A stretch of DNA of 56,481 bases. Source: Rhizaria sp. SCN 62-66 (lineage: Eukaryota). The notes under the pieces are model-generated. The model was not told the origin of the DNA, ran no database searches, and was given only the letters and a program-made list of their open reading frames with translations. Positions 5,726 to 55,702 of the stretch are shown piece after piece (within the stretch, counting starts at the first letter, position 1; each line of letters starts with the position of its first letter). The stretch spans positions 1 to 56,481 of the forward strand of contig MEDY01000175.1 in the NCBI GenBank assembly GCA_001724265.1. The letters are read 5' to 3'. The position numbers and the translations under genes are program-made.

Positions 5726-6573
5726 TTAGTTGCTGCCGCCGCTGAGCGTGATCGCCGGCGTCCCCGTGGCCGCGGCAACGGCCTCCAGCGCCCCCGCCGT
5801 GGCCCTCGCCTGCGCCAACGCGTCCTCCCAGCCGGCCTCGGCCTCACCGCGCGCGGCGGCGGCGACGGCGAGCGCACTGCGCAGCCGCGCCACCTCGAGC
5901 CGCTTGGCGGCCACGGCGGCCGCGCGCGGGGCCAGGTCAAGCCGGGATAGCGCGTCGCCGGCGGCGGCGAAGCCCGCGGCGTCCCCGCCACTCGCGGCGG
6001 CGGCAGCGGCAGCGTTGGAGGGAGATGTGCTAGCGGTGTTGTTGGTGCTGGTGATGGCGGCGGCTACAGCGTCAGCCGCGGCGGCGTCGTCCAGGGCCGT
6101 GAGGGCCTGAGCAAGACCGGATGAGGAGGCGGCGTTCTCGAACTCGAGCTGTTGGGAGCGGTCGATGATGAGGCAAAACATATTGAACAAAATTCGATCG
6201 TGAGAGAAAGTGAAATGAGATGTGAGCTGATGCTAACAGTAGATACCATACGACAATCTATCAAGACATGAAACACGCGCATCGTCAATGCCAGCATGAT
6301 ATGAATAGAATATGATGTGCCAAGCTAACGTACAAGGACGCCGTCACGGATCGCGGCCTGGTAGTAGCGGCCGACCTGGCGGAGGAAGATCTGCTGCCAC
6401 AACGTCGCCGCGGGGCCCTCCAGCTCGAACCCTTCGCTGAGGGCGTCGGCGGGGATCGCCTTAAATGCGCGGTCCAGCGCCTGGGTCAGGTACACCTCGA
6501 GCAGCTCTAGGCGGCGGTTGCGGGCGGGACCGAAGGCAGGGGCAGCATCAGCCGAGGCGGGTGTGAAGGACAT
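5726..6573 (-). CDS. Nnf1/PMF1-like kinetochore (MIS12 complex) subunit, ~220 aa; exons 6573-6334 and 6148-5726
   Basis: Phase-0 intron 6333-6149 (GTACGT...AACAG). The spliced protein RRLELLEVYLTQALDRAFK...RDGVL|LEFENAASSSGLAQALTALDD resembles the Nnf1 pattern (R...AL, EF...L..LD), followed by a coiled coil. Family call is by eye. Stop TAA. Confidence 0.6.
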
Positions 6574-7194: not shown

Positions 7195-7763
7195 TTACGA
7201 GCGCCCATGATTTAAATTGCGCGCTGGGCGCTTAAAGCGGGAGTTCGATCTCATACCGTCGGCCTCAGCAGCTTTCTGCTTCGTTTTGCGCTACGATTCT
7301 GCGATGACGTTCTGTTGCAGCTCGTCAATCTTCTTTAGCCCCTCCACAAACACTTTACAACAACGCAGTCAAAATTGGCACGCTCCTATCTTCTTAGTCT
7401 CTAGGTTGCATTATTTCGGCATCTCTTTGTGGCGTCTCATGACGACAGCTGTGTTCCACGGTAGGTACAACTTTGTGTGACATCGCATTAGGATTTGTCA
7501 ACATAAGCGCACACACGCAAACGTTGACGCGGAATAGCAAACTCGAGAGATAGCGGATAAGGGGGTGTTAATGACTGTGCGCGTACTACCAATGCAAGCG
7601 ACTGTGTGCTGGCAGAAACAGGAGGGCAGAGTGAAGTGACTGTGGGAGATTGGGTCAGAGGGGGCTGCTGGACGGCAACAAGATCAAGCGAAATCGTCAA
7701 GACATATCCGACCCATGGTTCCAGTGCAACCTTGTCGGCGTAATTCGAATACCAAACCTGCAT
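7195..7763 (-). CDS. Putative small gene; candidate terminal exon 7352-7195 with in-frame TAG (upstream exons uncertain)
   Basis: After TTTGAC...AAAG the frame reads FVEGLKKIDELQQNVIAES*RKTKQKAAEADGMRSNSRFKRPARNLNHGRS, with TAG at 7291-7293 and TAA at 7195-7197. Upstream ORF 7763-7488 contains a GTACGC donor, but I could not build a phase-consistent join. Confidence 0.35.
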
Positions 7764-8188
7764 TTTGTTCTATGCTGATCATCTTTTAATATTCTCTCTA
7801 TCGTTGTGAAAGTAAGGAATCTGATATGATGAACGTGACGCGTGAGGGAGCAATGAGAGGCCCTGCTCGGCTTGAACATTGCCCTCAATTGTTCATGTTA
7901 GTCCCCCCTGTTTATACTCATTCAAGTCATGTTTCTCACCGTTTCCAAGTTGTTTGCATCCGTTAATTGCACTAGTCTGCTATACCGCAAAGATAATCAT
8001 GCTTTATCCTCACTTTCTCCATCATCGGCACCATCACACAGTGTCCAGACCCGCTTAACTTTGCCCCACTTGAACATACTCTCACTTGCCATTCTTTCTT
8101 ATGCGCGTGTTATTCTTCTTGCGTATGCCACGTTCATCTTTGTGTCCCTTAAGGGTTGTCCCTGTTTCCCGCAGCAACCCCGCCCAGA

Positions 8189-10164
8189 ATGTCCGACTCC
8201 GCTCTGGACCTCGCCGCCTCATCCCTCGGTAGTCTGGGCCCCCTCGCCCAGTCCCTCCCTTCGGTGCTGCCCGCTTCCCTTTCCGCGCTGCCCTCCGCGC
8301 TCACTGAGGCCGTGCACACGTTGCGCCCCGTTGCCATGCGCGCCTGCGTTCGCCTCGCCCACGCCATTTCGCCCCCCGAGATCACCTCCTCCGCGGCAGC
8401 GGCCTAGTGGGCGGCTCTCACAGGCCACGCCGACGCCAGCGACGCCGCGACACCCTTCGTGACGGCGACGCACTTCTGCGACAGCCTCTCGCGCTTTTCC
8501 GCCTTTGACAGCGTCGACTCGCCGCTGGCCTTCCCGGCCCCGGTGCAGACTCTGCGCGCGCTCGTCACTCTGGCCGCCTTCGCGGTCACGGTCGCGGTGG
8601 CGGTGTATGTGCTCGTGCACGTGCTCTTCCTCCGCAAGCGCAAGGCCGGTACGTATCTGCTCGATGTGGCAACGTACAACGACTTCCGCCCCGAGTGGAC
8701 CGTTAGCGCGGAGGAGTGGGCGTCGCGCGCGCAGAGCTGGTTCAACATGGATCCTGAGGACATCCAGTTCAGCCGCACCATCCTCGAGCGCAGCGGCATC
8801 GGAAACCGCACTGTACGTTACTTATTTAGAAGATACTAGACTCATATTGCTTTGAACTACTCTACTTAGCGGCGTTGGCTAATTTCTATTTGATTGGAGC
8901 TTAAAGGAGCCCCATTTGACTCGTATCTCACACGTTCACTTTGCTTTCTTCCTTCCACACGCCACACAGCACTTTCCCCCTGGCATCGCCATGTTCCCTC
9001 CCGACCTGTCGATTGCAAGCGCGCGCTACGAGGCCGAGCTCGTGATGTTCAACTGCGTTGACCAGCTGCTCAAGCGCAACAACGTGCACCCCAAGGATGT
9101 CGACATCCTCGTCGTCAACTGCTCTCTGTTCAATCCCACGCCCTCACTTGCGGCTATGATCATCAACAACTACGGCATGCGCGAGGACATCATGTGTTAC
9201 AACCTCTCCGGCATGGGCTGCTCGGCCTCGCCCATTGCGGTTGATCTGGCTTCACAGATGCTCCAGGTCTCCAAGAAGCGCGATCCCGTGGCGATCGTTG
9301 TGTCGATGGAGAACATCACGCAGAACATCTACCTCGGTCGCGAGCGCGCCATGATGGTCGCCAATTCGCTCTTCCGCATGGGCGGCGCCGCTGTCATGCT
9401 GACCAAGCACGCGCACGCCGCCAAGGGTCGCCCCGCCGCGGGCTGGAAGCTCAACGAGCTCGTGCGCGTCCACATGGCGGCCAACACCAACGCGTACACG
9501 TGCGTCTTTCAGGTAAGTGTTCTCTCTTCTTTAAGTTAAATTCAAACGTTATAGTCATGATTACATAAGCATGTGTCTATATTCGGAATCTACATTTTAA
9601 TTTCAATAGTATTTGTGAATTTTGATTTTCATAGTGATCTCACAGCCACACATCTTATTGTTTCACTTCTCTCGCATGCAGGACGTCGACAAGGAGACCA
9701 AACCTGGCGTCCGTCTCGACAAGTCGCTCATGAAGGTTGCCGCGCAGGCGCTAACCCGCAACATGACCATCCTGGGCCCACGCATCCTGCCCTGGCACGA
9801 GAAGGCGCGCTACGGAGTGCTCACAGCGCTGCGCCTGTTCAAGGTCTGGCGCAACCCTGCGCTCGCGGCCTCGCTGCCGCCTGTCGTGCCGAACTTCAAG
9901 TCGGCGGTGCAGCATATCTGCATCCACGCGGGCGGCCGCGCCGTCATTGACGCCATCCAGAAGGCGTTGTCGCTCTCAGACGCGGATGTGAAACCCTCGC
10001 GCGACGTGCTTTATAAGTATGGCAACACCAGCTCCAGCTCCATCTGGTACGAGTTCGCAAACATTCTCGAGAACCGCAAGCCCCAGGTCGGAGACAAGGT
10101 CTGGCAGATTGCGTTTGGCAGCGGCTTTAAGTGCAACTCTGCCGTGTGGGAGCGCATTGCTTAA
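8189..10164 (+). CDS. KCS: FAE1/KCS-type 3-ketoacyl-CoA synthase (very-long-chain fatty acid elongation), ~549 aa if TAG 8405 is read as sense; exons 8189-8812, 8970-9512, 9682-10164
   Basis: N-terminal TM helix followed by YLLD; ILERSGIG; DILVVNCSLFNPTPSL; catalytic NLSGMGCSAS; LFRMGGAA; HICIHAGGRAVID; GNTSSSSIWYE; QIAFGSGFKCNSAVW. Two phase-0 GT-AG introns (8813-8969, 9513-9681). Stop TAA. Confidence 0.95.
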
Positions 10165-11413
10165 GTCAAGCTGTGCTTGAAGCTAGGCCGCCACAGGTTG
10201 CTGTGACACTGAGCTGCCAGCCTAGGATGTTGTAAGCAATGCTTGCTCCCAAATGTTTGGTAACGGTATCGTGTCACAAGTGGCTTAACCAAACGTCTGT
10301 ATCAGCAGAAGCATCTCAACAAGTAAAGTCTCTGTCCCAAGTCTAGTCAGTATGTTTGAGTTTTGTGCTTTCTGCGTTTTGTACATTTGTTTTTGTTTTT
10401 GTTTTGCTTATGTCATAATTGTTTGGTCCGGCTTTTGAGTTCAAGTCGTCGCATCCGCAGAGTAATCATGGCATGGTGCTTGTTAGTGCTCTTGATGCGA
10501 CTGTCACTTACTATTTCCTTGAAATCAACTAACGTAACAAAGAAACTACTGAATGTGAAAACAAGATGAAGAAAAAAGATGCTAGTTTCCTAACTGCGGT
10601 TGCCAATGACGTCTTATCACTTATTTGGTCAATCGACAATAACAAAACAAATACCTCAGCCGCCGCCGCCGCGCATGGCATGCTAGTGTTAGTTTGCAAG
10701 CCGCCTTTACTGACAACATCGCCGCCAGCAACACTAACAGTCTCGCATGCATTGTCACTCTGCCGCCGCCGCTGCTTTCTATGTGTTTCTCTCTCAATGT
10801 GTATGTTCACCATCGTTTTTATGTGACTTGCAGTCACATTTACACTCCATTACTGCACTTGCATGTTTTGCCCCCCTCCGTCAGAAGCCTCTGGCGCCGC
10901 GCCCCGCGTCGCAGCGTAGCGCGGCGGGCATTATGTGTGATCGCAGCTATGCAAATGACAACATCTCACGAACATCCTGCTATTGACAAGTGTATTTACT
11001 GAGACCGTCTCTGAGAACGAATTAGGGGCACTGTCTCGGTACCTGATCTCGCACGCAGCCTCGCAAGCGAGAGACACGAATCGTGATTATTCAGCTACAT
11101 CAACATCTGTTCACGAATAAACAACACTCTTCAACCTCATTCTTGGTCGATAAGTGACTACGATAATTGGGTAATAGAACAAAAACTGATAACGCAGAGT
11201 CTATTGGTCTGCGTTTGATCATAGGTTTAAACACATGTTTTTGAAATCATTTTAAAACCAACAAAGAAATAGAATACGTCAGCGCGTATGATAACTGTAC
11301 AAACAAACAATACCACGCCTTTAAACTACTTGAACGTATACACTGATCCTACGACAACGAGACCAAGCTAATCATATCACTGCTTGTCTCTTGCACTCAA
11401 GAGTCACCCAGAC

Positions 11414-38583: not shown

Positions 38584-39032
38584 ATGGCCAAGCACCACCC
38601 TGACCAAATCATGTGCCGCAAGCAGCCGGGCGTGGCTGTTGGCCGCCTGTGCTTGAGCTGCGACGGCAAGTGCTGCCTGTGCGACAGCTTCGTGAAGCCC
38701 CACACGCAGGTCCGCGTCTGCGACACCTGCGACTACGGGGCCATGCAGGGCCGCTGCATCATCTGCGGCAATAAGGGCTACTCCGACGCCTACTACTGCA
38801 AGGAGTGCTGTCTCCTTGAGAAGGACCGCGACGGTACGTGTTTATCTTTCAAACTCTCCATAAATACCTTGCTTCTCGCTTCCTGTCCAGCATTCCTTAC
38901 CTCACCATATTCTCTCTCGCTCTTGCGTTCCTTTTCGTCCTTTTAGGCTGCCCCAAGATCATCAACCTCGGCACAGCCAAGTCAGACAACTTCTACGAAC
39001 GCAAACGTGCCGCGGGAACAAAGAAAACATGA
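38584..39032 (+). CDS. PHF5A: PHD finger-like domain protein 5A (Rds3/SF3b14b), U2 snRNP SF3b subunit, 111 aa; exons 38584-38833 and 38947-39032
   Basis: MAKHHPD...CRKQPG...DAYYCKEC...[14 protein letters not shown]...FYERK. Phase-1 intron GTACGT...TTTAG. Stop TGA. Confidence 0.97.
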
Positions 39033-39744: not shown

Positions 39745-42700
39745 TTAGCCGCGACGGTCAAACTTGCGCACCTTGGCTCCCTTGAAGAAACCGCCCTTGC
39801 CGCCAGAGGTCCGCTCAGCCTTCTTGCCGCCGAAGCCGCCAGAGCCTGAGCCAGCGCCAGCGCCGCTGCGGTAGTTGTCATTCTTGCCGCGCGAGTCCTG
39901 CGATGCGCGCTTGAAGTCGATGCGCCCGTCCTTGCCGCCGTAGCTCTCCTTGAGGTCCTTGAAGCCGGTGAAGCCCTTGATATGGGCGGCCGGCCCCACG
40001 GCGCGCTGCGCGTTGTCCATGATCTTGACCATGCCATGGTCGCGGTTGTAGACGTTCTTGCGCGCGACGTTGACGGCGTTGGCCATCATCTGGAACGCGC
40101 CAGACGACGCGTGCGCCGTCTCGCCCGTCATGTGCATGCGGCCGACGTCGCGCGCCGAGTCGCGGTGCGTGGCCGACAGGTCGAACTGCGAGGCCGCCGC
40201 GTCCGTCGCCGTCGACGAGCGCGGGCGCTTGATCACGGCCTCGCCGGCCAAGGGAATGCGGCGCACGCCGAGGGCGTCACGGTCGTCGTCGCCGTCGTCG
40301 TCGCTGTCGTCGGCGACGGTCGCGCGGAGGCTCGGAGTCGCAGCAGCAGCAGCAGCAGCGCTAACAGCAGGGGAGTAAGGTTTGCTGCCACTGGAGAGCT
40401 TGGTGGCGATGTCTTCGTGACGGTGGTCGTCAGCGTCGTCGTCACCGCCCCAGCTGTTCTTGTTCAGCGAACTCGTGCCCTTGGCGAGCTTGGGTACCGC
40501 GCGCTTCACACTGCCCTGGCGAGCGCCGGCGGCCTCCATGGCCTCCTTTACAGCACGCTGCGCCACGACGCCGCCGACCTTGGCCGCGGCGGTGACCGTG
40601 GCGGCCGTGTACACGGCGGCGCCGCTGCGGCGACCGAGGTCGACATCACTGTCGCTGTTGTCGGCCGCGGCCGCGGCGTGCAGGTCGGCCGCGCGCACGC
40701 GGTTGCGCTTCTGCTTCTGGTGCTCCTGTTTCTGCTTCAGCTGCTGCTGCTTGGCCTCCGCAGCGGCAGCAGCAGCGGTAGTGTCGGCGTCCTTGGTCCC
40801 GTCGCGGTTGTTTCCGGCGCGGCCGTCGCTCTCCTGCTTGTTCTTGCGCTCGATGCGCTTCGCCATCTCGTCCTTGACGGCCCAGATGGCGTCCTTGCCT
40901 GTGAACTCGGTGCGCACCTTCTTCAGCCGGCCCGCGTCGAGCGCGGAGTCGTACTCGTCGCGCACGTAGCCCAGCTTCCCGCTCGCCGCGACCTCGGCGG
41001 CGGCGTCTGCGGTGCCCGCGGAGCCCGACCGGTCGGCGCCGTCCCAGCCCTCGAGCTTGGGCGCCGTGGCGAAGATGGCGGCCGCGCCCTTGGCGAGGTA
41101 GCGTTGCTGGCCTGCGCGCATGGCGTCGGTCACGCCGTCGAGCTTCTCCTTGGTCGCGCGGCGGCGCGCCTTGGCCTTGAGTCGCAGCGCCTCCTCCGGA
41201 GTCACGAACTTGCTGTTGCGGGCTGCGGCCGCGGTCGCGTTGGCCGCGGCAGCGTCCTCGTCCTCGTCATCGTCGTCGCTTTCGGTCTCACTGTCAGCCT
41301 TCTTGCCCTTGTTCTGAGCCTTGTTCTTAGACTTGGCGTCCGAGTCGGAGTCGGAGTCGCGTTGCGTGCTCTGTACGCGGCCGTCCTTAGCCTTCTTGCC
41401 GCGCGTGCTCACCTTATCCTCGGCGTCGCTGTTGCCGTGGCCGTCGTCGTCGCTGTCGCTGGTGTCTGACCGCACCGCCGCCTTGCGCGCAGCCGCCTTG
41501 CTGTCGTAGTCGTCGCCACCATCGTCGTCGCTGCTGTCGGCGGCGGCGTTGCTGTCTTCGCTCGAGTCCGACATTGCGGCCAGCGCGGCGGCGCGGGCGG
41601 CCTTGGCGGCAGCCTTCTTGCCCAGCGCCGCGGGCATGGCTACGATACGGCCGACGCCGCTGCTGCGCTCCGCGGCGGCCAGGAACGCCGCCGCAACCGA
41701 GGCGGACTTGGCCTTATCGCTGAGGGGCTTGCGCTTCTTCTTGCTGCTGTCGTTGTCAGACTCGGACTCGGACTCGGACTCGGACTCGGCGGCGGCATTG
41801 GCGTTGGTGTCCGTGTCGGAGTCGCTGATGGCGAGCAGTGCGGCGTACTCAGCGGGCACTTCGGACTCAGCCTTCTGAGGGACAGTGCTGACCTTGGCGG
41901 CGGCAGCGACAGGAGCGGAGATCTTAGTGGGCGCAATGAGCTTCTTGCCCTTGGAGTCGGGAATAGCGGCGGATGTCTTGAAGACGGCGGCATTGGTGAT
42001 AAGCTTCTGAGACTTCTTCCCCGCGGCAGCGTCATCGCTGTCACTCGAGTCGCTCATGTCATGCTCACCCTCACCGTCGTCCTCATCGCTGTCGAGCTCA
42101 GCCTCATCGGACTCAGTTTCGGTGTCAATCTCACCGTCCTCGTCCTCGTCCTCGATGTCATCCTCAGCATCGGCCTCGTCCTCATCCTCGTCGGCAATAT
42201 CGCCCTCGAGCTCGCCGTCCTCGTCAGCCTCGTCATCGCCTTCAGCAATGTCGCCCTCGCCCTCGTCGCCTTCATCGCCGTCGAGGTCGTCGCCCTCGTC
42301 ATCGCCCTCAAGCGTCGCTTCATCGCCCTCAGCAAAGTCCGTGCCGTCGTCGTCGTCCTCGTCCTCGTCAGAGCGCGCGTCGCTTTCGAAGCCAGTGACG
42401 TCGTCTGCGTCGGGGTCGTAGTCGACGCCGAAGTTGGACTTCATGAACGCAGCAATGCGCGCGTTGGTATCGGACTCATCATAGTCCTCCTCCTCTTGCT
42501 CTTCCTCATCCTCGAAGTCATCCTCGTCGTCATCGTCAGAGTCAGAGTCAGCGTCCAAATCAGCGTCAGCGTCCTCATCAGCGTCAGCGTCCTCATCAGC
42601 GTCATTATCGTCGTCGTCACTGTCGCTGCCACTGTCGGCCATGGCCGTGAGCGGCGCGGCGCTTGCGACGGCAAAGTCAATGAGACCCTTCTTGGCGGCG

Positions 42701-45700
42701 GCGGCCTTGCTGTCCTTCTTGGCGGTAATCACGGCCGCGGCCGCGGTTGCAGCCTCCGAGGCGGCCGTCTTGCTCACCTTCTTGCTATTGGCCGCGGCCG
42801 CCGCAAAGACCGACGTGTCGCAGGCGTCGGCGTCGTCGTCCGTGCTGTCGTCAGCCATCGTAACGCCGCCCTTGCCCGCCGCGGCGGTCGCGAAGTCGAC
42901 GGCACTGCGCTTGACGCGTTTGCCCAGCAGCGCCGAGTCTCCAGAGTCGGACTCAGGCTCGTTGTCGTCGTCGTCGCTGGCGCTTTTGCGCTCATCAGCC
43001 GCCGCAGTGCTGTTAGCAGCGGCGGCGGCGTCGTCGTCGTCGCTGCCGTCGCTCACGCATCCGTACACTTCCTCGTCGTCGCCGAGCCCCATGACGCCCG
43101 CGCTGCGGCTCGCGGCGGCCGCGCGCTGCCGAGGCATGCGAAGTCCCAGCGCCGCGGCGGCCGCCTTGCGGTCCACGCGCACGCGCTCCACCACGCCACG
43201 CCGCAAGGTGTCAGGCACCGCGGGCGCCAGCTTCTCGTAGACAAGGACATACGCGCGCTCCTGCAGGACCTCGCGCAGAGGGATTGGACGCGAAGACTCG
43301 TCGTCCTTGAGGTACCAGTTTTCCCAGTCGCCGCAGCCTTCCTCCTCTTCATCGTTAGCCTCATCGTCGTCGCTGTCGACAAGAGTGCGCTTGCCGTGCT
43401 TGCCAAAGTGCTGCTGCTGCTGTTGCTTCGCGAGCTTCTTGGCGCTCAGGGGAGTCTTGGCGCCGCGCCCCTTGACGATTGCGTAATAGTGCCCGTTGCC
43501 CATCGATCCGTGGTGGACAACCAGGCCGCACAGCCGGTACTTGTAGCTCTCCAGGCCGCCCAGGGGTACGCCCACGGTCACTGCGCTGACTGGCTGGTGC
43601 TTGTCGGCAGTGGACTGGTTGGCAGCGTTCATGATGCTGCTTGCAGTGGTCGCAGTCAAAGAGTTCGTGGTCGTCGTCGTGATCGTCGTCGAGAGCACGG
43701 CGAGGCGCGCGTGGTTGGCCACCGTCGTCACGTCGGCCGCGGCGGCGACCGGGAGGTGGTAGGAACCAGCGCAGCCGATGCCGCCTGCTGCAGGCGGCAG
43801 CGGCCGGCCGCCGGGGCCGCGCGCGAAGGACTTGACCGTCGTCATCGTCGTCGTCGTCGTCGTAGTCGTGGTGTTCGAGCTGTGAAGAGTTGCGCCGACG
43901 CCGAAGAGGGTCGAGGGCAGACTGGTCACATAGTCGTCGGCAGCGACAGCGGCGGCGGCGGCGTTCACCGTCGCGGTCGCGGACTCAGAAGAGCTGCTGG
44001 TGACCGTGGTGCTGACGATAGGCGCGAGGGGCAGGGACACAAGGCCGCTGCCGAAGCCGACGCTGCGCGTGGCGTGCAGCGAGTTCAGTCCGGGCACCTT
44101 GCTACTGCCACTCCCCGCCGCAGCAGCAGCAGCAGCAGTACTGTTGGTGTACGACAAGGCGAGCACGGGGTCGCTGACGCCACCCGACTGCGCGCCGGGG
44201 GCCATCGCGGCGGCGGCGGCGGCGGAGGCGGTGGCGGCGACGGGCGCGATGGTGGCCACAGAGGGCAGCGCGGCGGCGACGAGCTGCGCGGGCGTGTCCA
44301 GCGGCTCGAGCCCGTATGGCAGCTGCGGCGCGTCGAGCATGCGCACGATGACCGCGCCTCTGTCGCCCGCCACGCTGTTGCTGTTGCTGCTGACGCTGTT
44401 GCCGTGGACGTCCGTGACGATCACTGGCGTGGACGCGGTGGCCATCGGGTGCGGCGCGCTGGCGTACACCGCGAGCGGGACAGCGCTCAGAGACACGGGC
44501 TTGGCGGGCTTGTTGCCGTAGCCCTGCGCAGTCGCGGCCGCGGCGGCTACGGCCTCGGCCAGGACGGCCGTGATGGCGCTTGCGTGGGTGGGCACCGTCA
44601 GGTCGACGAGCGAGGCCGCGGTCTCCGCGCGCCGGGCCGAGGCTACCACGGCGGCCGCGGCGACGGCGGAGGGCGCGTCGGCCGTCAGGCTCAGGCTCAC
44701 GTTGTTGCTGTTGCTGTCGCCGGCGGCGCCGCCACTGGAGGTGGAGAGGTAGTTAAGCGTGCACTGGGGGGTCTTGGAGCCGCTGGCGCTGGTCGCAGCC
44801 GCCGCGGCCGCCGCAGCGCCGGCAACTAGCCCCGTTGCCGCGGCCTTGGCGTAGGCGGCGACGCCGGCGTTGGCCTTGCGGACCGATGAGGAGACGAAGG
44901 GGCGCAGGTCGAGCTCGACGGGGAAGGTCACGCGGTGACCCAGCTTGGTCCCGTTCATCAGCCGCTTCTTGGAGCCGGAGCCGAAGGAGCGGCCGAGCAT
45001 CTCCACGGCCTCGAAGCCGGCCGAGAAGCGCTTGAGGTGGATCGTGAGCACGTTGGGCATCTTATGCACCGTGAGCCGCTTGCGCGCGGTGACCTTTGTG
45101 GCGCAGCGCGCGCAGCGGTACGCGTTCTTGCCCTGCAGCACCTCGGGCTTCGTGAACGCCGCCAGCGCGTCCTCCACGGAGCCGATATTGGCAACCTGTA
45201 CCGAGAGGTCGAGGAAGCGCTCGTAGCTGTTGCTCTCGTAGTTGCACACGGAGCAGCGGATCTGCGAGCGCAGGACGCCGCCCATCAGCGCGTACACGGG
45301 CCCAGCGAGCTGGGCTGACATGGGCAGCGCTGCGGCCACCGCGGCGGAGTCCCAGCGGCCGCTCGACTGGGCGGGGGCCTTGTGCAGGTAGGCCGGCAGG
45401 TTTGACTGCAGCCAGTGCATGTTGAGCTTATCGAGCAGGGACCGCATGGCCTCATGGGCGTCCTCTTGGTCGCCTGTGATGTGTGAGGGGAAAGAAGAGC
45501 GAGCAAAAACAAAGAAGAAAGAGGAAGGTGAGAAAAACAAAATTAAAATGCACCATACAATGCCGTTTTTAAATGTAAATTGGACTGGTTTTTGTCTTTA
45601 ATGAATATTAAAATTTGCGTACCGAATGCCTCCATGGAGGGAATGATGGCCTTGAGGTGGCGCACGACCCACTTAGGCGCAATTTCCCGCGGCGGCACGT

Positions 45701-48700
45701 TGGCCAGTGCGTTACTATCCTTGTTGGCACCCGCGACCGTGACGCGTCCGCGCATGTGGAAGCTGACTGCGAGCCGCTGGAGCGTGCAGACGGCGCAGAA
45801 GGGCGTCTTGCCACTGGCGGCGAGCGCGGCGGCGGCAGCAGCGCTGTGGCCCTGGCAGCGCACGCAGCGGTGCGCGTGCCGGTCGCCGCCCAGCTCCGCG
45901 ACAGCCGCGGAGAGCGGGTCTCCGAAGGCCACGGCGGCCAGCGCGGCCGCAGCGTCAGCGTCGGACACAGTCATCTCGCCACGGGTGCTCGCTGTCACAC
46001 TACTTGAGTGACTCGAGTTGGCGAGGATGAAGGGCCGCGCCGTGAGCGCCGCAGCGGGGGCGGCCGGCGCGTACTGACCCAGGTAGGCCGCCACCGCCGC
46101 CTCGGCCGCGGAGGCGCCGTCGGCGGGCGCCAACGGCACGGGCGTCGGCGCGGGCGCGGCGCCGTTGGCCGCGGCCGTGGGGGCCTTGGAGCCGGGCACG
46201 GTGGTCAGCGGGGCTGAGCCGCCGCTGCTGGCGGCCAGGAGCGAGCGGGCGAGCGCGGCGCAGTCGTCGGCCACGGCCACGCGGCGCAGCGCCAGCACGG
46301 CCACTGGCGACGCCGCTGACCGGGCGGCCGCGGTGCCGGCCGCATTGGCGGTGGCGTCGTCGACCATAGAAGAGGGGCGGGGGGCCCACAGCGGGTGCAG
46401 CGGGTGCGTGGGGGCGAGCCGCGACACGAGTCCGTCGCCGCGGTTGAGCGCCGCGGCCACCGAGGGGTCCTTATGGTGGGGGAAGAAGGCCATACCGGCG
46501 TTGTGAGCGGTGACCGTGAGCGTGGGCCGGCCGCCGCCCGGCGTCGCAACGGGCGCGACAGGGTGGGCCGGGTGGTTCGGCGGCCGCGGCAGCGCGTGTG
46601 GCGGTGGTACCTGCACCCTGGCCTCGGCCACAGACCGCTCCCACACGCGGGTCGCGGCGATGGCGCGGAGGCGAGTCAGCGCGTTACTCACGACGATGTG
46701 CTGGCCGGACCGCCAGAGTGTCAGCAGGACCGAAAAAAGGGCCTGCGGGGACTCAGTCGCAGCGCTACTGTTCACAAGAGGCAGCGTGTTGGTGACGGGC
46801 GGCACTGAGGGGCCCTTGCGCGAAGGGGCGTTCTCAGCGGCACTGAGCAAAGACTCAAGCACTTGCACCGAGTGCGCCAGAGTCGCATCCTCGTTCTCAT
46901 CATCGCCATCGTCGCTGTCCATTGCCTTGTGACTGCCAGCGCTAGCACTCGTACTCGCGCTCGCAGCAAGCGGTAGGTGGAGTGACTGCCCGCGGCGGGC
47001 GAGGCGGCGGCCAAACAGCTGTGCCAACGACTCGATGCGACTCGCACCGGCAGAGAGAGCACCGCCGGTGACAGCAGCCGGGGCACTTACACTGCCACCC
47101 TTAGCCGACGCAGAGGAGGCACTTAGACTGGCGGGATCGACGCCCGCGAGCTTGAGCGTCTCCTCTGAGGCGGTGAGACAGAGCCATTGCGCCAGCAGGG
47201 GGATGTGCATCATGACTTGCAGCGCCGAGTTGAGGAAGCACGTGTTGCCCAGGTTGGCCAGCCCGGGGGTTGGCTTCAAGGCAGCGGCTGTCACCCCGCC
47301 AGCTCGACCGGACGCGGCCGCCGCCACCGCCGTCTTGACCGCCTTGGCGGAGTCGGCTGCGATCTCGGCACTCTTGGAGGCCAGCACGGCGGCGGCCGCG
47401 GACTGCTTCTTGCTCTTCTTCTTAGCACCGCTATTTCCGTCAATACCGTCTTGCTCCTGCTCCAACTGCTGCTGCTGCTGTTGCTGCTGGAGTTCTTTGA
47501 GCTTCTTGCGCTCGCCAGAGAGTTCGGCCTCGATCTCGGCCTTGACCGCTGCGCCATAGATGGCCTCCTGCTCCGGCCAGTGCAGCAGCAGCGCGGGCAG
47601 GCGGTCGGGCACGCAGGTCGCGTGTAAGGGCGACGGGTAAGGGTAGTCGTCGCCGTAGATAAGCCGCACCGCGCTGCGCGCCACACGCAGCACCAGCAGT
47701 TCCAGCGCGTCGACGGGCACCGCACCCGCCAGCACCGACGGCTGCTGCTGCTGCGTCGCGTCAGCCTCGGCCTCGCCTGCAGTGATGGACTCGGGGTCGG
47801 CCGGTGCAGTCTTGTTGCTCAGCTTGCCCTTCTTCGCGCTGCTAGCGCTGCTGTTAGAGGCAGCGAGCACCGCGTTGGCGAGCGCCTGGGACAAACCGGC
47901 AACGGTGCGGATGTTCGCGGCATTTGCAGCGGCAGCGTTGGCATTCGTGCCATTGGTGTTGTTGTTGGAGGCAAGTGTTTGAATCGCTGTGAGGACCCGT
48001 GCCAGAGCGCGCTTGCGGGCGGGGTCTAAGGGCCTCGCCTTGGCCCCCTTAGACGCCTCACCGCCATTGTCACGGCGCGACTGCGTGTTGAGCCCGTATG
48101 CAAGCGCAGACAGCTCAGCCAACACGGCCATAGCGTCGACTTTAACGCCCCCGCCCGCGGCGCCTGCGGTGCCGTTGGACAGCAGAGAGTCGCCGGCGCC
48201 GGCTGCGCGCAGTAGCGCACCGAAGGAGGACGACGCGACGGCGGCCACGCTGCCGGCGGCGGCCGCGGCGGCCGAGGCGGACCAGCGCGGGTCGTAGCCG
48301 TAGACCTTGGCCAACGCGAGGTTATCCAGCGGGTCGCTGTACTTGTTTGTGTTAAGGGTTACCAAATTGAAGGAGCCGTCCTCGGGCCGCGCGGGTTTCA
48401 GCGACCGAGGATCGCGGGCAGGCGTAAAGCCGACGCGGCGGGTCAGCACGCCCTGCGCCTCGCCCGCCAGGTGCGCGACGAGCGACGCCGCAGTGACGCC
48501 GCCCCTGCCGCCGTTCAGAGGGTTGGAGTTTGAGCTCCCGTCTCCCGCGGAAGCGCCTGAGTCTGACTTGGCCTCTGAGCCGCGGCGGCTTGACTTTGCA
48601 TAGTGCGGGGTCAGCGTCACACCGTCGCGCGGGTCGTGCTCCTGTGCGTCGCCGTCGTCGTCGCCGTCTGCCATGGCGCGGGGGCCGGAGAGCGGATCCG

Positions 48701-49013
48701 TGTCGTCGTCGAATGACGCGCGGGAGGCGCGGATGCGGGCCTCCACGTCAGCGTACGCGTCGGCCGCGGCGCCCGTGGCGGCGGAGGCCGCAACGGAGGC
48801 CGATGAGTTGCTGCGGGCGGCAAAAACGGCCGAGATGACGTTCGTGGACGCGGCGGCGGCAGCCTTGTCCTTCTTCTTGGACGAGACATGGGCCGATGCT
48901 GAGGCAGCGCCCTGCTTGTTAGGGGTTTGTGCGGGGTGCACAGTGGCAGAGCCGCCAACAAAGCCCTTGTTGTGCTTCTTCGTCACACCGATGTGATGCG
49001 CGTTGAAGGACAT
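39745..49013 (-). CDS. USP36: USP36/USP42-like (nucleolar) ubiquitin-specific protease, ~3039 aa; exons 49013-45623 and 45473-39745
   Basis: GLANLGNTCFLNSALQ; FCAVCTLQ; the intron 45622-45474 splice creates FGDQEDAHE; GGVLRSQIRCSVC; FLDLS; YRCARC; LTIHLKRF; YRLCGLVVHHGSMGNGHYY; AYVLVYEK. Acidic tract and C-terminal DEYDSALDAGRLKKV resemble the USP36-family tail. Stop TAA. Confidence 0.88.
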
Positions 49014-49428
49014 GTGAGTATGCGAGTGTCTCCCGAGTGGGAAAGAGAGAAAGCGAAGGACAAGAGACTGTGATCGCAAGAGGAGAGAAGAGGTGGATTT
49101 GGTAAGCGGAATGTCGAGGAGTTCATCAAGCAGTGAAGATTTTAATGGAGAATCGAAGTATTTGCGCCATGATGGTAGCGGTAATGAATGTGGTATAACT
49201 ATTTACGGAAGTGTAGTGCTGTTACAGCAGTGTTTCGCGGCACGCAGTCCGTGGTTTGGCGGTCTCCTGCCCAGCCGACCAGAACCAAGCCTCGCTTTGG
49301 CGCCTTGCAGCCTCGATGTCATCAACTTCAGGCAAGGTTATCGATATTAAAACAACGTCAAATTGCCGAGAGACTTTGCATCCTGGTTAGCTCTTGAGCT
49401 TCGTATGTGATATTTCAATTACATCTCT

Positions 49429-50866: not shown

Positions 50867-53800
50867 TTAGTCAGTCGGCGATGAAGCAGGATTCGTGGCG
50901 AAATAGGTCGAATAGAAACCATTAAAGTCGAGCCGTGTCAGCAGGTCACTCCAGTCGCCCACAGCTGCATTGTTGCCGCCGCCGCTGCTAGCGCTGCCCG
51001 TCGCCGTGGCCGCAGTGGCCGCCTCGGTCTCTGCCGCTAGCAGGGCAACGAAGGCGCGCAGTCGGTCGTCGAAGGACGTGGAGAACTTGTTGATCATAAG
51101 CGCAAAGTGCGGGTGCGAGACCACGCCCGACGCGCGCGCCGTACGCTCGGCCACCTTGAGCGCGCGCGCGCGGCCGCAAAGAACACCCGAAGCGGTCCCC
51201 GCGCCGCCCGCGGTTGCGCCGCCAGAGCCGGCGCCGTCGCCTTGCTGCAGCTGCGAGAGTACCGCGTCTGCGGGCGAGGCGTCGACCGAGGCGGCGAGGC
51301 GGCGCGCGTTGTCGGCAAAGAGCAGGCAGTAGGTGAGCACCTTGACCAGCACGGCGAGCAGCCGCGGGTGCGTGAGCATGCAGGCGTGCAGCGCGCCGTC
51401 GAGGAAGCCCGAGTGCAGCCGAACCACCTCGTCGACGGTCGAGGCGATGGCGACGCGCGCCGCCATCGCCTGCCATGCCGGCTCCAGCGCGGTGTGCGCA
51501 AGGTAAGTCGACAGCGAGGTGACCAGGTGCAGCATGCGGTGCCGCAGAGTGTTGGCGGCGGCGAGTGCACGCTCCAGAGAGGCGGACTTGAATGTCTGCA
51601 GCGACGCGAATGCGGCGCCGAGCCTGCGCTGCACGTGCCGCACGAACACTAAGTGCCGGAACAACAGCTGATACTTAGTCAGCGAGCGGCGTGAGAACAC
51701 GAGGTTGAGCGGCCAGTCGACGCGCATAGTGAGAGCAAGCACGTCCAGGCCGCGCAGCGCGTTGCCCGCAGAGCCTGCGGCGGCGGCTTGCCGCTGCTGC
51801 TGCTGCTGCTGCTGTTGTCCAGTCGCCGCAGAGCTATTGACAGCGGCGCCCGCGGCGGCGGCGGCGATCGCGCCGGTGGGCTGCAGGTAGCACACGATCT
51901 GGTCCCTGTAGGGGTCCTTGCCGGCGCCAGTTGTGCGAACCGCGTCTTCCCACAGGGCGTCGAGCTTCGCGGCTGACACCGCCGCGGCGGGCAGCGCGAG
52001 TTCGGCCCCCGCAAGGTCGAGGAAGCGCGAGGCCAGGTCGCCGTAGCCGAGTAGGAAGAAGCCGCGCGCCGAGGCCAGCCGGCCCGCCAAGTCCAGGCCC
52101 CGGGGCGCGGGGGACCGGCACAAAGACAGTGCGGCTGTCGCGGCGGCAGCGTGCGCGGCGCCGATCGCCGCGGCGAGGATGTGCGGCTGCTCCAGTACGA
52201 GGCGCGGGTTCCGGGCCAGTGTGCTGAGCGCAATTTGGTGTAAGCTGCCACTCTGGCCGTGCGAGGTGCTCACATCGGCGTCCAAGTAAGGCACCAACGC
52301 GGTCGCGCCGGAGCCTGCGCTATTAGTCAGGCCGCCGTCGTTGATGGACGAATGCAGCCGCAGGACGCCCCAGTGCCGGCCCGCTAAAAGAAGCATCTCT
52401 GCGTGCGGCCGCAGGAACAACGGCACCTCAGACAGCGGCCCCGCGTCGTCCTCGCCGCCGTCCTCCTCCGCAGCGGCCGCGGCCAGCGCGGCGCCCGCGG
52501 CGGCGGTGTCGGCGGCGGCGGGCGCGCGGTGCGCGTACCGCTGGTGCCAGTATGCCTCGCCCAGGTCCTGAGCGACGCGGTCGCCACCCCAGTCTGCCGT
52601 GGACACGATGTGGAACTCGTCCCACGCGTCGCCCTCCAAGTCCGCGTGGCAAGCCCACGCCGCAGTCAGCGCCAAGTACGGCGCGGCGGCGGCGGCCCAC
52701 AGCGCGGCCCAGTCGTCGCGCGCCGCCGCGTCGCCCGCGCGGAGCAGCGCGCGGTGGACGAGGGTCAGCAGGTGCGCGCCCCGGCCGCGGCGGCCGCGGG
52801 AGAGCGCCGCCGTGAGCAGCCAGCGCACCCGGGCCCAGCGCGCGGCCGCGGGGCGCGTCGCGTGCCACAACTGCAGCAGCGAGAGGCCGCGCGGGGCCTG
52901 TAACGCAGCTTCCAGCCGGGCGATGAGCAGCGCATGGCCGCGGTGCCAACGCGCGATCGCCGAGCAGAGCGACGTCCACACGGAACCGGCGCCGGCGGGA
53001 CGTCCCGCGGCGGCCGCAGTCGTCACTGCGGCGGCGAAGGCGGCGTCGCGGCACAGCGGCAACACGCGCGACACCGTGTCGGCGAACGCGGGGGGGAGCA
53101 CGGCGGCCGCAGCGGGCGCGAGGTCTAGGCGGGTGGCCGCGGCGGCGGCGGTCAAGGAGTCCCAGCCAAGCGCGGCTGCCACGGGCAGCCCGGTGTCGGT
53201 GATCATGTTGCTCGCGCCCGCAGCGGCGGCGGAGGCACTCGCAGTGGCGGAGGCTGCCGAGTCCGCGGGGACGGCGACGATGAAGCGCGAAGGCAGCCCC
53301 TCGAGCGCGGAGAGCAGGTCGTCGCACAACACGGCCTCCTGCTGCTGCGGGGGCAGCGCGCCCAGCACTGACGCCGCGGCGGGCGCGGCCGGGGACGCGA
53401 GCGCGGGCAGGCAGCCGCGCGCCGTGAGGGCGGACACGGCGCCGGGACCCAGCAGCGAGGCCGCAAGCGGCGGCGGCAGCGGGCGCGCGGCGTCGGCGGC
53501 CGTCACCGGCGCCGGGGACGGGCGCGCGGTCAACACGCAGGCGCGCGCGCGGGAGCCTCCGGCGGGCGTCGTGGCCGCCGTGGCCGCCGGCGCCAGCACC
53601 CACTGCGCGCAGTCTGTGGCCAGGGCGGCGGGGGCGATGGCGGCGATGGTGGCCACGGGGGCGGGGCGGCCGGTGAGGGCGGAGATGGGGCCCGCGGTGA
53701 CGGTGAGCCACAGGCCAGAGGCGGTGTGCTGCAGCCACACAGGGGCGCCCGCGGAGATAGAGTGGCCGTAGGGTGCAGAGTGGTGGCCATGAGAGGCCGA

Positions 53801-54896
53801 GTGGTGACCGTGAGCAACGACGCCGCCAGGAGTACTCGCAGTGAGGTGTTGCAGAGGGTCGACGACGGTCCAAGCAGCGGATTTAATGTCAGCCGCGTCA
53901 CTACTCTCAACACTCGTGTTCGGGTTAACATTGCCGGAAAGCGACGAAATGACTGTGAGGGCATTGTTCGAGTTATTGCTGTTGGAGACGGCCAGCAGCG
54001 CAGGGGTGCCAAGGGCGGCGATGAACACGGTGGCTCCGTGGCGCAGCACAGACGCAGTCGCCGCACTGCCACTCACGCCGGCCACAAGCTGCTGCTGCTG
54101 TTGCTGTTGCTGCTGCTGCTGATGCGACTGCGACTGGGTCGGGTTGGGGTGAGGCGCAGGGACGAATGCGAAACCACAGAAGGCGCTCCGAGTGCGGCTT
54201 GACTTCGGTGCGCCACTGACGCCGTACAGCTGTTGCTGCTGCTGCCGGTACAGCGCCATCGCAGCGCCGTTGTCACGGTTGCTGCTGGCGCTGCTGCTGT
54301 CCTGAGCTTGCGGGAGCGTGATGGCGGCGCCGGCGCGGGGACGCTCGCAGTCGCTGCCCACGGTCGCCAGTCCCGCGCTCACGGTCACATTTGCGCCCGC
54401 CCCGTCCGCTGCGGCGCCCGCACTGGCGTTGCCGAGGTTGGCGCTGCCGCACTCGGTGAAGACGGAGAGGAAGAGCTCGGTCGCCGGGGCGGCGGCAGCG
54501 GCGGCCGCGGCGGCGGTGTTGGCCGTGGCCGTGGCCGCGGAGACAGCGAAGCCGAGGCGTTCCGTTGCACTCAACGCCGCGGCGGCGGCGGAGGACGCGG
54601 CGGCCGGCACGGGCGGCGCGGTGAAGGGCAGCGCTGAAAGCACGGCGTCGAAGAGACCGGCACCGCTGTCTGCGGCTGCGGCGTTAGTATGGGAGAAGGC
54701 GGGGGCGGCGGGCAGGTGCAGTGGCGGCGGGTGCGGCTGCAGGAACAGGGGCGCGCCCGTCAGAGTCGAGGCGAGGCCCCAGGGAGAGACGACGGGCGCG
54801 GGCTGAGGCTGCTGCTGCTGCTGACGGTGATACTGCGCGGAAGAAGGCGTATTCGCATGAGGATAAGACTGGGTGTGTCCATGGGGCAGCAAGTTA

Positions 54897-54948
<52 letters not shown>

Positions 54949-55702
54949 ATGAGCGATAGAGGTTGTGCGCACTGGCAGAGCTGGCAGTCGGCAACGCAGC
55001 CCCGCTGGCAGTGACAGCAGTCGCGAGTGGGGCAGCCACATGTACAGCGTTGACCTGACTAGTGTTCGTCGTGGTCATTGCAGCCGAGGCAGCGGCGTCG
55101 TTGGTTTTGATGTACGTGGGATGGTAGTTGGCGTAGTCGCTGGCCGTTGCCGTCGGCAGCGGCGCAGCAGCGGCAGGACCAGCGGACGACAACGACGCGG
55201 ACGACGACGAGGACGACGTAGATGCAATGTAGGCGCGATGGTTCACAGAAGTAGCAGGAGCAGGAGCAGGGGCAGGGGCAGGGGCAGGAGCTGTGCTTGT
55301 GACAGGAACACGAGAGGGCGCAACACCACTAGCTAGCGCGGGCGGTGCGGCGTAGTGACGCGGCAGTGCAGGTGCAGCCGCGCTTGAGCTCACAGGAGCA
55401 CCTGCAGCAGGAACAGAAGCTACTGAAGCGGGGGCAGGAGCAGGGACGTAGGTAGCCTCAGAGTTCTGCGTTACAGAGTGTTGAACAGGTGCAAAAGACG
55501 CGGGCGCAGCACCAATGTTGGCCGACTGACCGGTAGCGCGCGGAGGGGAAGCCACGGCGGGGCCTGCGGCCGCGTTCTTGGCGGCGAGTGAGGCGTTGAT
55601 GTTGCTCAGCGTGGCGCGGTATGCGGCGACGGCCGAGGAGAACGACGCTGTGCTCGGGGCGGGGGCGCCGGGCGCGGGGTTAGAGGCCCCGGGGTCAGAC
55701 AT
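50867..55702 (-). CDS. TUBGCP2: Gamma-tubulin complex component 2 (Spc97/GCP2), ~1611 aa if TAG 54947 is read as sense
   Basis: EAVLCDDLLSALEG; DAWDEFHI; YWHQRY; VPLFL...LLAGRHWGVLR; FFLLGYGD; GLDVLALTMRVDWPLNLVFSRRSLTKYQLLFRHL. ORFs 55702-54947 and 54892-50867 are in the same frame, separated only by one TAG. Stop TAA. Confidence 0.88.
54899..54946 (-). repeat. (CAG)16 coding microsatellite (poly-Gln)
   Basis: 48 nt of perfect CTG repeats on the + strand, immediately preceded on the coding strand by TAG. Confidence 0.95.

Follow-up and report, generated by a model that had tools for sequence, protein, structure and literature searches.

An in-frame TAG in a transcribed 3-ketoacyl-CoA synthase gene of Rhizaria sp. 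SCN 62-66 and its possible reading as a rare sense codon

Contig MEDY01000175.1 of Rhizaria sp. SCN 62-66 carries a gene for a 3-ketoacyl-CoA synthase (KCS) with a TAG codon in frame near its 5' end, and the question is whether this triplet stops translation or is read as an amino acid. We analyzed 56,481 nt of the contig on the forward strand (hereafter the window). From the ATG at 8189-8191 the frame runs through 72 sense codons to ...SSAAAA, meets the TAG, and goes on in frame with WAALTGH... to a TAA at 10162. Under the standard code this frame is interrupted at codon 73, and it is uninterrupted only if UAG is translated. The TAG was found to be real, transcribed, unspliced and located within conserved coding sequence. 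The reading that we favor, and to which we give about an even chance, is that UAG is translated as a rare sense codon in this organism, which would give a KCS of 549 residues and place the cause at the level of the organism.

The gene was compared to P0003, a JGI protein of 525 aa that was the closest among the best 120 of 3637 matches (E ≤1e-20; 4110 candidates). Contigs of four sequencing runs (X2, X4, X5, and X7) were placed on the KCS stretch; such contigs drop minor variants. The parts of the gene are given below.

8148..8188, + strand: 5' leader; RNA contigs start at 8148 (X7) and 8164 (X5), contig ends being a weak hint of the transcript start, and no ATG precedes 8189
8189..8404, + strand: N-terminal coding segment of KCS, 72 codons; codon-usage log-odds of +41.5 bits and a match to P0003
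8405..8407, + strand: in-frame TAG, codon 73; seen in DNA and RNA contigs, opposite Glu49 of P0003
8408..8812, + strand: rest of exon 1 with a variable linker, a hydrophobic helix, YLLD and the beginning of the FAE1 domain; gapless match to P0003 residues 50-184 at 72.6% identity
8813..8969, + strand: intron 1, 157 nt, GT..AG; spliced from 8812 to 8970 in contigs of cDNA run X5 (side 212)
8970..9512, + strand: exon 2, catalytic core with GMGCSA; FAE1_CUT1_RppA with E 2.8e-72, 87% identical to P0003 residues 185-365
9513..9681, + strand: intron 2, 169 nt, GT..AG; joint in X5 and X2 (9509/9679, with the cut moved by +3 to 9512/9682)
9682..10164, + strand: exon 3, containing HAGG and GNTSSSS and closed by TAA 10162-10164; Pfam domain, 82.5% identical to P0003 residues 366-525, the C-terminus ...WERIA matching the end of P0003
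10165..10600, + strand: 3' untranslated region (UTR), reaching at least to 10600; X5 contigs 10233-10484 and 10476-10600, six frames non-coding

By its domains and motifs the product is predicted to be a membrane-anchored FAE1-type KCS, the condensing enzyme of very-long-chain fatty-acid elongation. The FAE1_CUT1_RppA domain (PF08392) is contiguous over the three exons (profile positions 3-61, 63-237, and 239-283, the second segment being that of exon 2) and is followed by ACP_syn_III_C (PF08541, E 9e-12). The motifs GMGCSA, HAGG, and GNTSSSS, in which the catalytic Cys, His, and Asn triad of KCS enzymes resides, are found in the same places as in P0003. Elsewhere the gene has no frameshift and no further stop. 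The initial annotation had described a KCS gene starting at ATG 8189 that is intact but for an in-frame TAG in exon 1; every feature that it named was found in place, and the intactness was borne out by the gapless colinearity with P0003. It had also claimed that stopping at the TAG would cost the enzyme its membrane anchor and the YLLD motif. This holds, since the first in-frame ATG past the TAG is at 8747 (the first Met being residue 113 of the open reading frame (ORF) 8408-8836), while the hydrophobic stretch at about 8555-8635 and YLLD at 8654-8665 both lie between the TAG and this ATG. The hydrophobic run reads LVTLAAFAVTVAVAVYVLVHVLFL, is followed by RKRK, and is a candidate membrane anchor as judged from its sequence.

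Codon-usage log-odds were derived from the eight long ORFs of the window, which comprise 12,617 codons. The segment 8189-8404 scored 0.576 bits per codon in the frame of the ATG and the TAG, and its other five frames scored from -27 to -96 bits. The values for the rest of exon 1 and for exon 3 were 0.581 and 0.567 per codon, and the 5' flank and the 3' UTR were negative in all six frames. The open frame alone would be within chance, as the DNA has 72% GC and another sense frame of 8189-8404 is without stops too.

Residues 40-72 of the segment ahead of the TAG align with residues 16-48 of P0003 at 61% identity, and this segment alone gave a BLASTP E of 2.7e-14. The alignment is without gaps over the whole gene, and the 169 residues across the TAG are 70% identical. 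The segment ahead of the TAG contains the motif TLRPV, and a similar (T/V)LRP opens more distant members of the KCS clade described below. Because codon usage and the colinearity with P0003 agree, the TAG lies inside conserved coding sequence and is not the end of an upstream open reading frame (uORF). An exhaustive phmmer search with exon 1 against 1.84 billion representatives gave nine matches with E ≤0.001, of which only P0003 spans the TAG. Among 1556 candidates for exon 1 relatives of similar length there was one, the window's own ORF. In the protein records the halves of exon 1 appear as two predicted proteins, P0122 of 72 aa and P0001 of 126 aa. A metagenome scan with P0003 returned two loci, L002, which is the window's own sequence, and L001, a more distant relative, but not the contig of P0003 itself; a scan of genome contigs with exon 2 gave 36 pattern matches, none of them a relative.

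The stretch was found, whole or in part, in 18 rows from 11 studies dated 2015-2025, with half or more of it present in six. The data sets are public ones from wastewater, bioreactors, and sludge. DNA-type contigs cover the TAG in X2 (7500-8652) and X4 (8052-9128) with no other letters, and 8056-10324 (2269 bp), introns included, has a 100% match in the JGI metagenome contig L002. In the cDNA run X5 neither the introns nor the sequence upstream of 8164 is covered, and the contigs are spliced at 8812/8970 and 9512/9682. Since the introns are uncovered and both GT..AG joints are spliced, X5 reports processed RNA. Its contig 8164-8540 crosses the TAG without difference, gap or joint, and its depth there is 7.95 compared to 7.96 in the neighboring spliced contig. 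The polyA run X7 covers 8148-8596 unchanged. It additionally covers part of intron 1 (8726-8939) and 7644-7880; since unspliced RNA or DNA is thus present in it, this run is weaker evidence for the TAG in mature mRNA. Deviating letters in the stretch were limited to five at 9711-9741 in X2, which come from short contigs of a related gene. No ATG is present between the RNA start (8148-8164) and 8189, so the first AUG of the message opens the interrupted frame.

Some contigs of X2, X4, and X5 fit the gene only partly. There is a joint at 8799/9099 with 142 other letters, and loose ends are seen at 8773, 10021, and 10053, the places concerned being 8773-8799, 9099-9128, 10021, and 10053. As these contigs fit short conserved parts and then diverge from the window, related KCS genes, either paralogues or genes of relatives, are present in the same samples.

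The other stops of the window were compared by a screen of every stop with 40 open codons on both sides, ranked by coding score. The KCS TAG ranked first. The TAGs at 40967 (+) and 19579 (-) were rejected as antisense shadows of long genes, the opposite strand being open and higher scoring. No in-frame TAA or TGA interrupts the best-scoring frame anywhere in the window; only two TAGs do so, that of KCS and the following one.

54947..54949, - strand: second in-frame TAG, directly before (CAG)16, between ORFs 54950-55702 and 50870-54946 of a gamma-tubulin-complex gene (GCP)

From the ATG at 55702 (-) this gene runs through 251 low-complexity codons to ...NLYRS, followed by the TAG, (CAG)16, and a further 1,343 codons in the same frame (an ORF of 1,359 codons). 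The sequence upstream of the TAG scored +69.4 bits and had no stops compared to 5-12 stops in the other frames. The frame of the TAG is the best of six on either side, and no AT-rich spacer separates the two ORFs. The Pfam domains GCP_N and GCP_C are located downstream, where the first in-frame Met is 229 codons away, and the filed protein P0126 begins just past the TAG, at a TTG. Both TAG-interrupted genes begin alike with MSD..., the sequences being AGAATGTCCGAC (8186-8200) and CAGATGTCTGAC (55705-55691, -), which may reflect coincidence or a start context common to both.

The 11 genes of the window end in TAA (seven) or TGA (four) and never in TAG. Gene ends were taken from ORF ends and were compared to an orthologue for KCS and, roughly, for GCP. 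The TAA after ORF 45546-49202 was left out of the count, since it probably lies in an intron of a USP gene.

Altogether, these observations make translation of UAG our preferred explanation. The TAG is fixed in every sample examined and is present in RNA of the spliced type. No in-frame AUG past it would retain both the membrane helix and YLLD. A second gene has the same anatomy, with a coding signal on either side of a TAG in one frame. None of 11 genes ends in TAG, and neither TAA nor TGA interrupts a gene. Reassignment of UAG alone with UAA kept as a stop has a precedent in the rhizarian exLh and in Iotanema.

In the mechanism that we propose, the KCS mRNA would begin about 25-40 nt before ATG 8189 and keep the UAG at codon 73. 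Ribosomes would translate this UAG rather than stop at it, giving the 549-residue protein, and the property would be organism-wide instead of specific to KCS. The UAG would be read by a suppressor-type tRNA (anticodon CUA) and/or be weakly recognized by eRF1, with UAA and UGA still terminating. We infer that UAG is translated, that this is valid genome-wide, and which residue is inserted. For the latter, three candidates are suggested by different comparisons: Glu by the P0003 orthologue, where the match concerns one aligned site in a variable stretch; Gln by the (CAG)16 run that follows the second TAG; and Leu by the rhizarian exLh. Tentatively, and with a probability that we rate just short of even, this uncultured, GC-rich wastewater organism may be at an early stage resembling codon capture, with UAG withdrawn from the terminators and in use as a very rare sense codon, perhaps within the exLh lineage.

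Several observations weigh against translation of UAG. If TAG were a free sense codon, position-specific base frequencies predict about 115 of them in the 12,617 codons, whereas the eight long ORFs, which are stop-free by construction, have none and two are found at ORF joins. TAG is at least 50 times rarer than expected of a free sense codon and is strongly avoided, and only two in-frame sites are known in the window. Under the codon usage of the window 1716 of 2469 one-step nonsense paths (70%) give TAG, and for that reason it does not discriminate that both interruptions are TAG. The lack of TAG among 11 terminators is weak evidence given the small sample. Where P0003 has Glu at the KCS site, a single substitution, GAG to TAG, would suffice for a plain nonsense mutation. 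The coding signal of the GCP site is one of codon usage, since its orthologue P0127 is a fragment truncated at the N-terminus that starts at residue 685 and does not extend to the TAG. A tRNA scan of the window gave no tRNA genes. As contigs drop minor variants, a second allele at 8405 or a minor isoform may be hidden. In the relative L001 (1-19874) all six long complete ORFs end in TAA, and its 19.9 kb hold no in-frame TAG; with 52% GC and an intronless KCS that has a much longer N-terminal extension and is 72% identical in exon 2, L001 tells little about the window organism.

The main rival of UAG translation is a recent nonsense allele, which we consider less probable. In a clonal population that is widespread, a change from GAG (or CAG) to TAG would have inactivated this copy of KCS or one of its alleles; transcription would continue and decay would not yet have set in, the loss being tolerated through paralogous KCS genes. 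The single step from the Glu codon fits such an origin, as does the predominance of TAG among nonsense paths and its absence otherwise from some 12,600 coding codons. The samples are 100% identical even in introns, which would leave no time for decay, and related KCS genes are present in the same runs. The presence of a second in-frame TAG among only 11 genes argues against it, as this would imply many fixed null alleles for a free-living organism, and KCS has acquired neither a frameshift nor another stop. Messages with a premature stop upstream of exon junctions are usually degraded, yet the depth of the cDNA contigs was equal before and after the TAG, which is followed by two such junctions.

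Programmed readthrough specific to this gene appears improbable. A normal UAG stop would leak through a near-cognate tRNA, so that mostly a 72-residue peptide and a fraction of full-length KCS would be made, tuning the level of the enzyme. Frame and conservation are continuous across the TAG, as readthrough would also have it, and the CAG after the second TAG resembles the UAG-CAR with which known leaky contexts begin. The UGG GCG after the KCS TAG matches no known leaky context, and the 96 nt at 8405-8500 fold no better than shuffled sequences (z -0.47; 66 of 200 shuffles fold at least as well). The position is an ordinary sense codon in P0003, so that the stop is not conserved as a regulatory feature. 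Known cases of programmed readthrough extend C-termini and are not known to interrupt N-terminal regions.

Less probable still is a 72-codon uORF, with KCS translation beginning past the TAG, either at AUG 8747 or at a codon other than AUG. Gene callers did file the two halves separately, as P0122 and P0001. The residues ahead of the TAG are nevertheless conserved as the colinear N-terminus of an orthologous KCS, a TLRP-type motif opens more distant clade members too, and the upstream codon bias equals that of the enzyme. A start at 8747 would cost the enzyme its membrane helix and YLLD. Initiation at a non-AUG codon past the TAG, which the initial annotation had listed as a possible refutation, would discard 33 residues conserved in P0003 and is unlikely.

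An error of sequencing or assembly, an intron with its 3' end at the TAG (CCTAG|T is formally a possible 3' splice site) or RNA editing is largely refuted, since at contig level the letters are identical in all four runs and in L002, the RNA contigs show no other letters at 8405-8407 (minor spliced or edited forms could be dropped), cDNA contig 8164-8540 is unspliced while both real introns are spliced in the same run, and the alignment to P0003 is gapless and calls for a single residue where the TAG stands, all of which upholds the earlier doubt about an intron and leaves the read error then envisaged without support.

The window is eukaryotic. Exons have 60-80% GC compared to 35-50% in introns and spacers, and the GC content at third codon positions of exons is 0.8-0.9. 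The proteins of the window contain extreme low-complexity runs of Ala, Ser, and Gln, in ORFs of up to 3,610 aa. Besides KCS and GCP the 11 genes are those for a FYVE/DSP phosphatase, a VASt protein, Pet127, two USP proteins, a CAF1B-like protein, PHF5A, and an E2, together with ORF 5729-6232, which has no name. An Rfam scan of the window gave no matches at gathering score, and no eRF1 gene was found in the window.

Two USP ORFs of 1,219 and 1,950 aa are located at 39748-49202 (-) and overlap by about 50 nt in different frames. Each holds part of one UCH domain (profile positions 2-30 and 77-254), and for this reason they are probably parts of a single, very large USP gene, an intron of which would lie near 45,550. 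A small two-exon gene at 38585-39032 (+) (MAKHHPD...CPKIINLG...) ends in TGA and is located inside an otherwise AT-rich stretch of 3 kb; its product, named by eye from its similarity, is presumably a PHF5A/Rds3-like splicing factor. The X7 contig at 7644-7880 is 237 nt long and lies in the AT-rich region upstream of KCS, where X5 has no cover. It may represent an unannotated transcript or carry-over of DNA.

The enzyme itself is a FAE1-type KCS of the ordinary kind, from a protist clade that has been sampled sparsely, and what is unusual is the way in which it would be encoded. Few eukaryotes are known to have nuclear codes that give UAG and UAA different meanings, and it is debated how stops change meaning, chiefly between codon capture and an ambiguous intermediate. 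If it were true genome-wide that UAG is absent from terminators and nearly absent as a sense codon, yet translated, the organism would show a transitional state. If this reading is confirmed, the rarity of UAG would give it special interest, as such rarity is to be expected early in a reassignment. Recurrence of the stretch in public wastewater and bioreactor data sets makes the question testable from existing reads. Gene callers split the KCS and GCP genes at the TAG (P0122, P0001, and P0126), and predicted proteomes would accordingly be wrong. Should the TAG prove to be a simple nonsense allele, there would be nothing unusual in the finding.

In programmed readthrough of the tobacco mosaic virus (TMV) type, with the context UAG-CAR-YYA, and in similar cases, an in-frame UAG is followed by an open, functional frame, as it is in the KCS gene. 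The KCS site differs in that it is near the N-terminus within conserved sequence, showed no stimulatory fold at 8405-8500, and is not conserved as a stop in P0003. Blastocrithidia are AT-rich trypanosomatids almost without cis-introns in which all three stops are reassigned, whereas TAA and TGA end genes in the window and GT..AG introns are common. Their nonstop code is reported to have UAR as Glu and UGA as Trp (PMC12153298), and UAG thus stands for the residue that P0003 has at the site.

Plant and algal FAE1-type KCS proteins have the same Pfam domains and motifs and, as predicted here, an N-terminal membrane anchor, and among the matches listed they are 50-58% identical to the window in exon 2. 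The window clade differs from them by a longer N-terminal extension carrying the TLRP-type motif. In a quick maximum likelihood tree of 33 KCS rows, chosen from the best 120 matches and with the window entered as exon 2, the window and P0003 fell into a clade of 16 rows (SH-aLRT 99) that is almost wholly metagenomic and stands apart from all plant, algal, dictyostelid, and aphelid rows. Within these best 120 matches the only named member of the clade is a UniRef entry filed under Lygus hesperus. FAE1-type KCS is not known as an insect gene.

The Lygus hesperus transcriptome assembly is described by Panek et al. (2017; PMC5304391) as contaminated by Blastocrithidia and by exLh, a sainouroid rhizarian, and sainouroids such as Rosculus are reported to be abundant in wastewater (PMC8827150). 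Because of these two circumstances a UAG-reading lineage is a reasonable prior. The link to exLh is only a lead, which tempers the case for UAG translation, and so does the composition of Rosculus vilicus, the only sequenced sainouroid genome (PMC10770858), at 37.7% GC compared to 60-75% in the exons of the window. Within our coverage of the literature, outside of which subscription journals lie, no report of such a code in wastewater or sainouroid organisms was found beyond Panek et al. (2017).

The coding anomaly resembles the UAG-only reassignments of exLh, Iotanema, and some ciliates, and it may belong to this class. The window has exons of 70-75% GC, introns of about 160 nt and no ciliate marker that we could see, and appears to differ in this from ciliate gene structure. 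Phyllopharyngean and other ciliates are reported to have UAG reassignments (PMC11687900, PMC10553269), and in them, as would be the case in the window, UAG and UAA have separate meanings. Panek et al. (2017; PMC5304391) give UAG as Leu in exLh, which terminates with UAA or UGA, and as Gln in Iotanema spirale, which has kept UAA as a stop. The same authors report 384 in-frame UAGs in 71 genes of exLh, compared to two in-frame TAGs in about 14,000 codons of the window. In Guttulinopsis (G. vulgaris), a relative of exLh, nearly all transcripts end in UAA according to this source, and gene ends are similarly rich in TAA in the window (7 of 11) and in L001 (6 of 6). The window resembles these codes in that, of the three stops, only UAG is found inside coding sequence, and its genes end in UAA and UGA.

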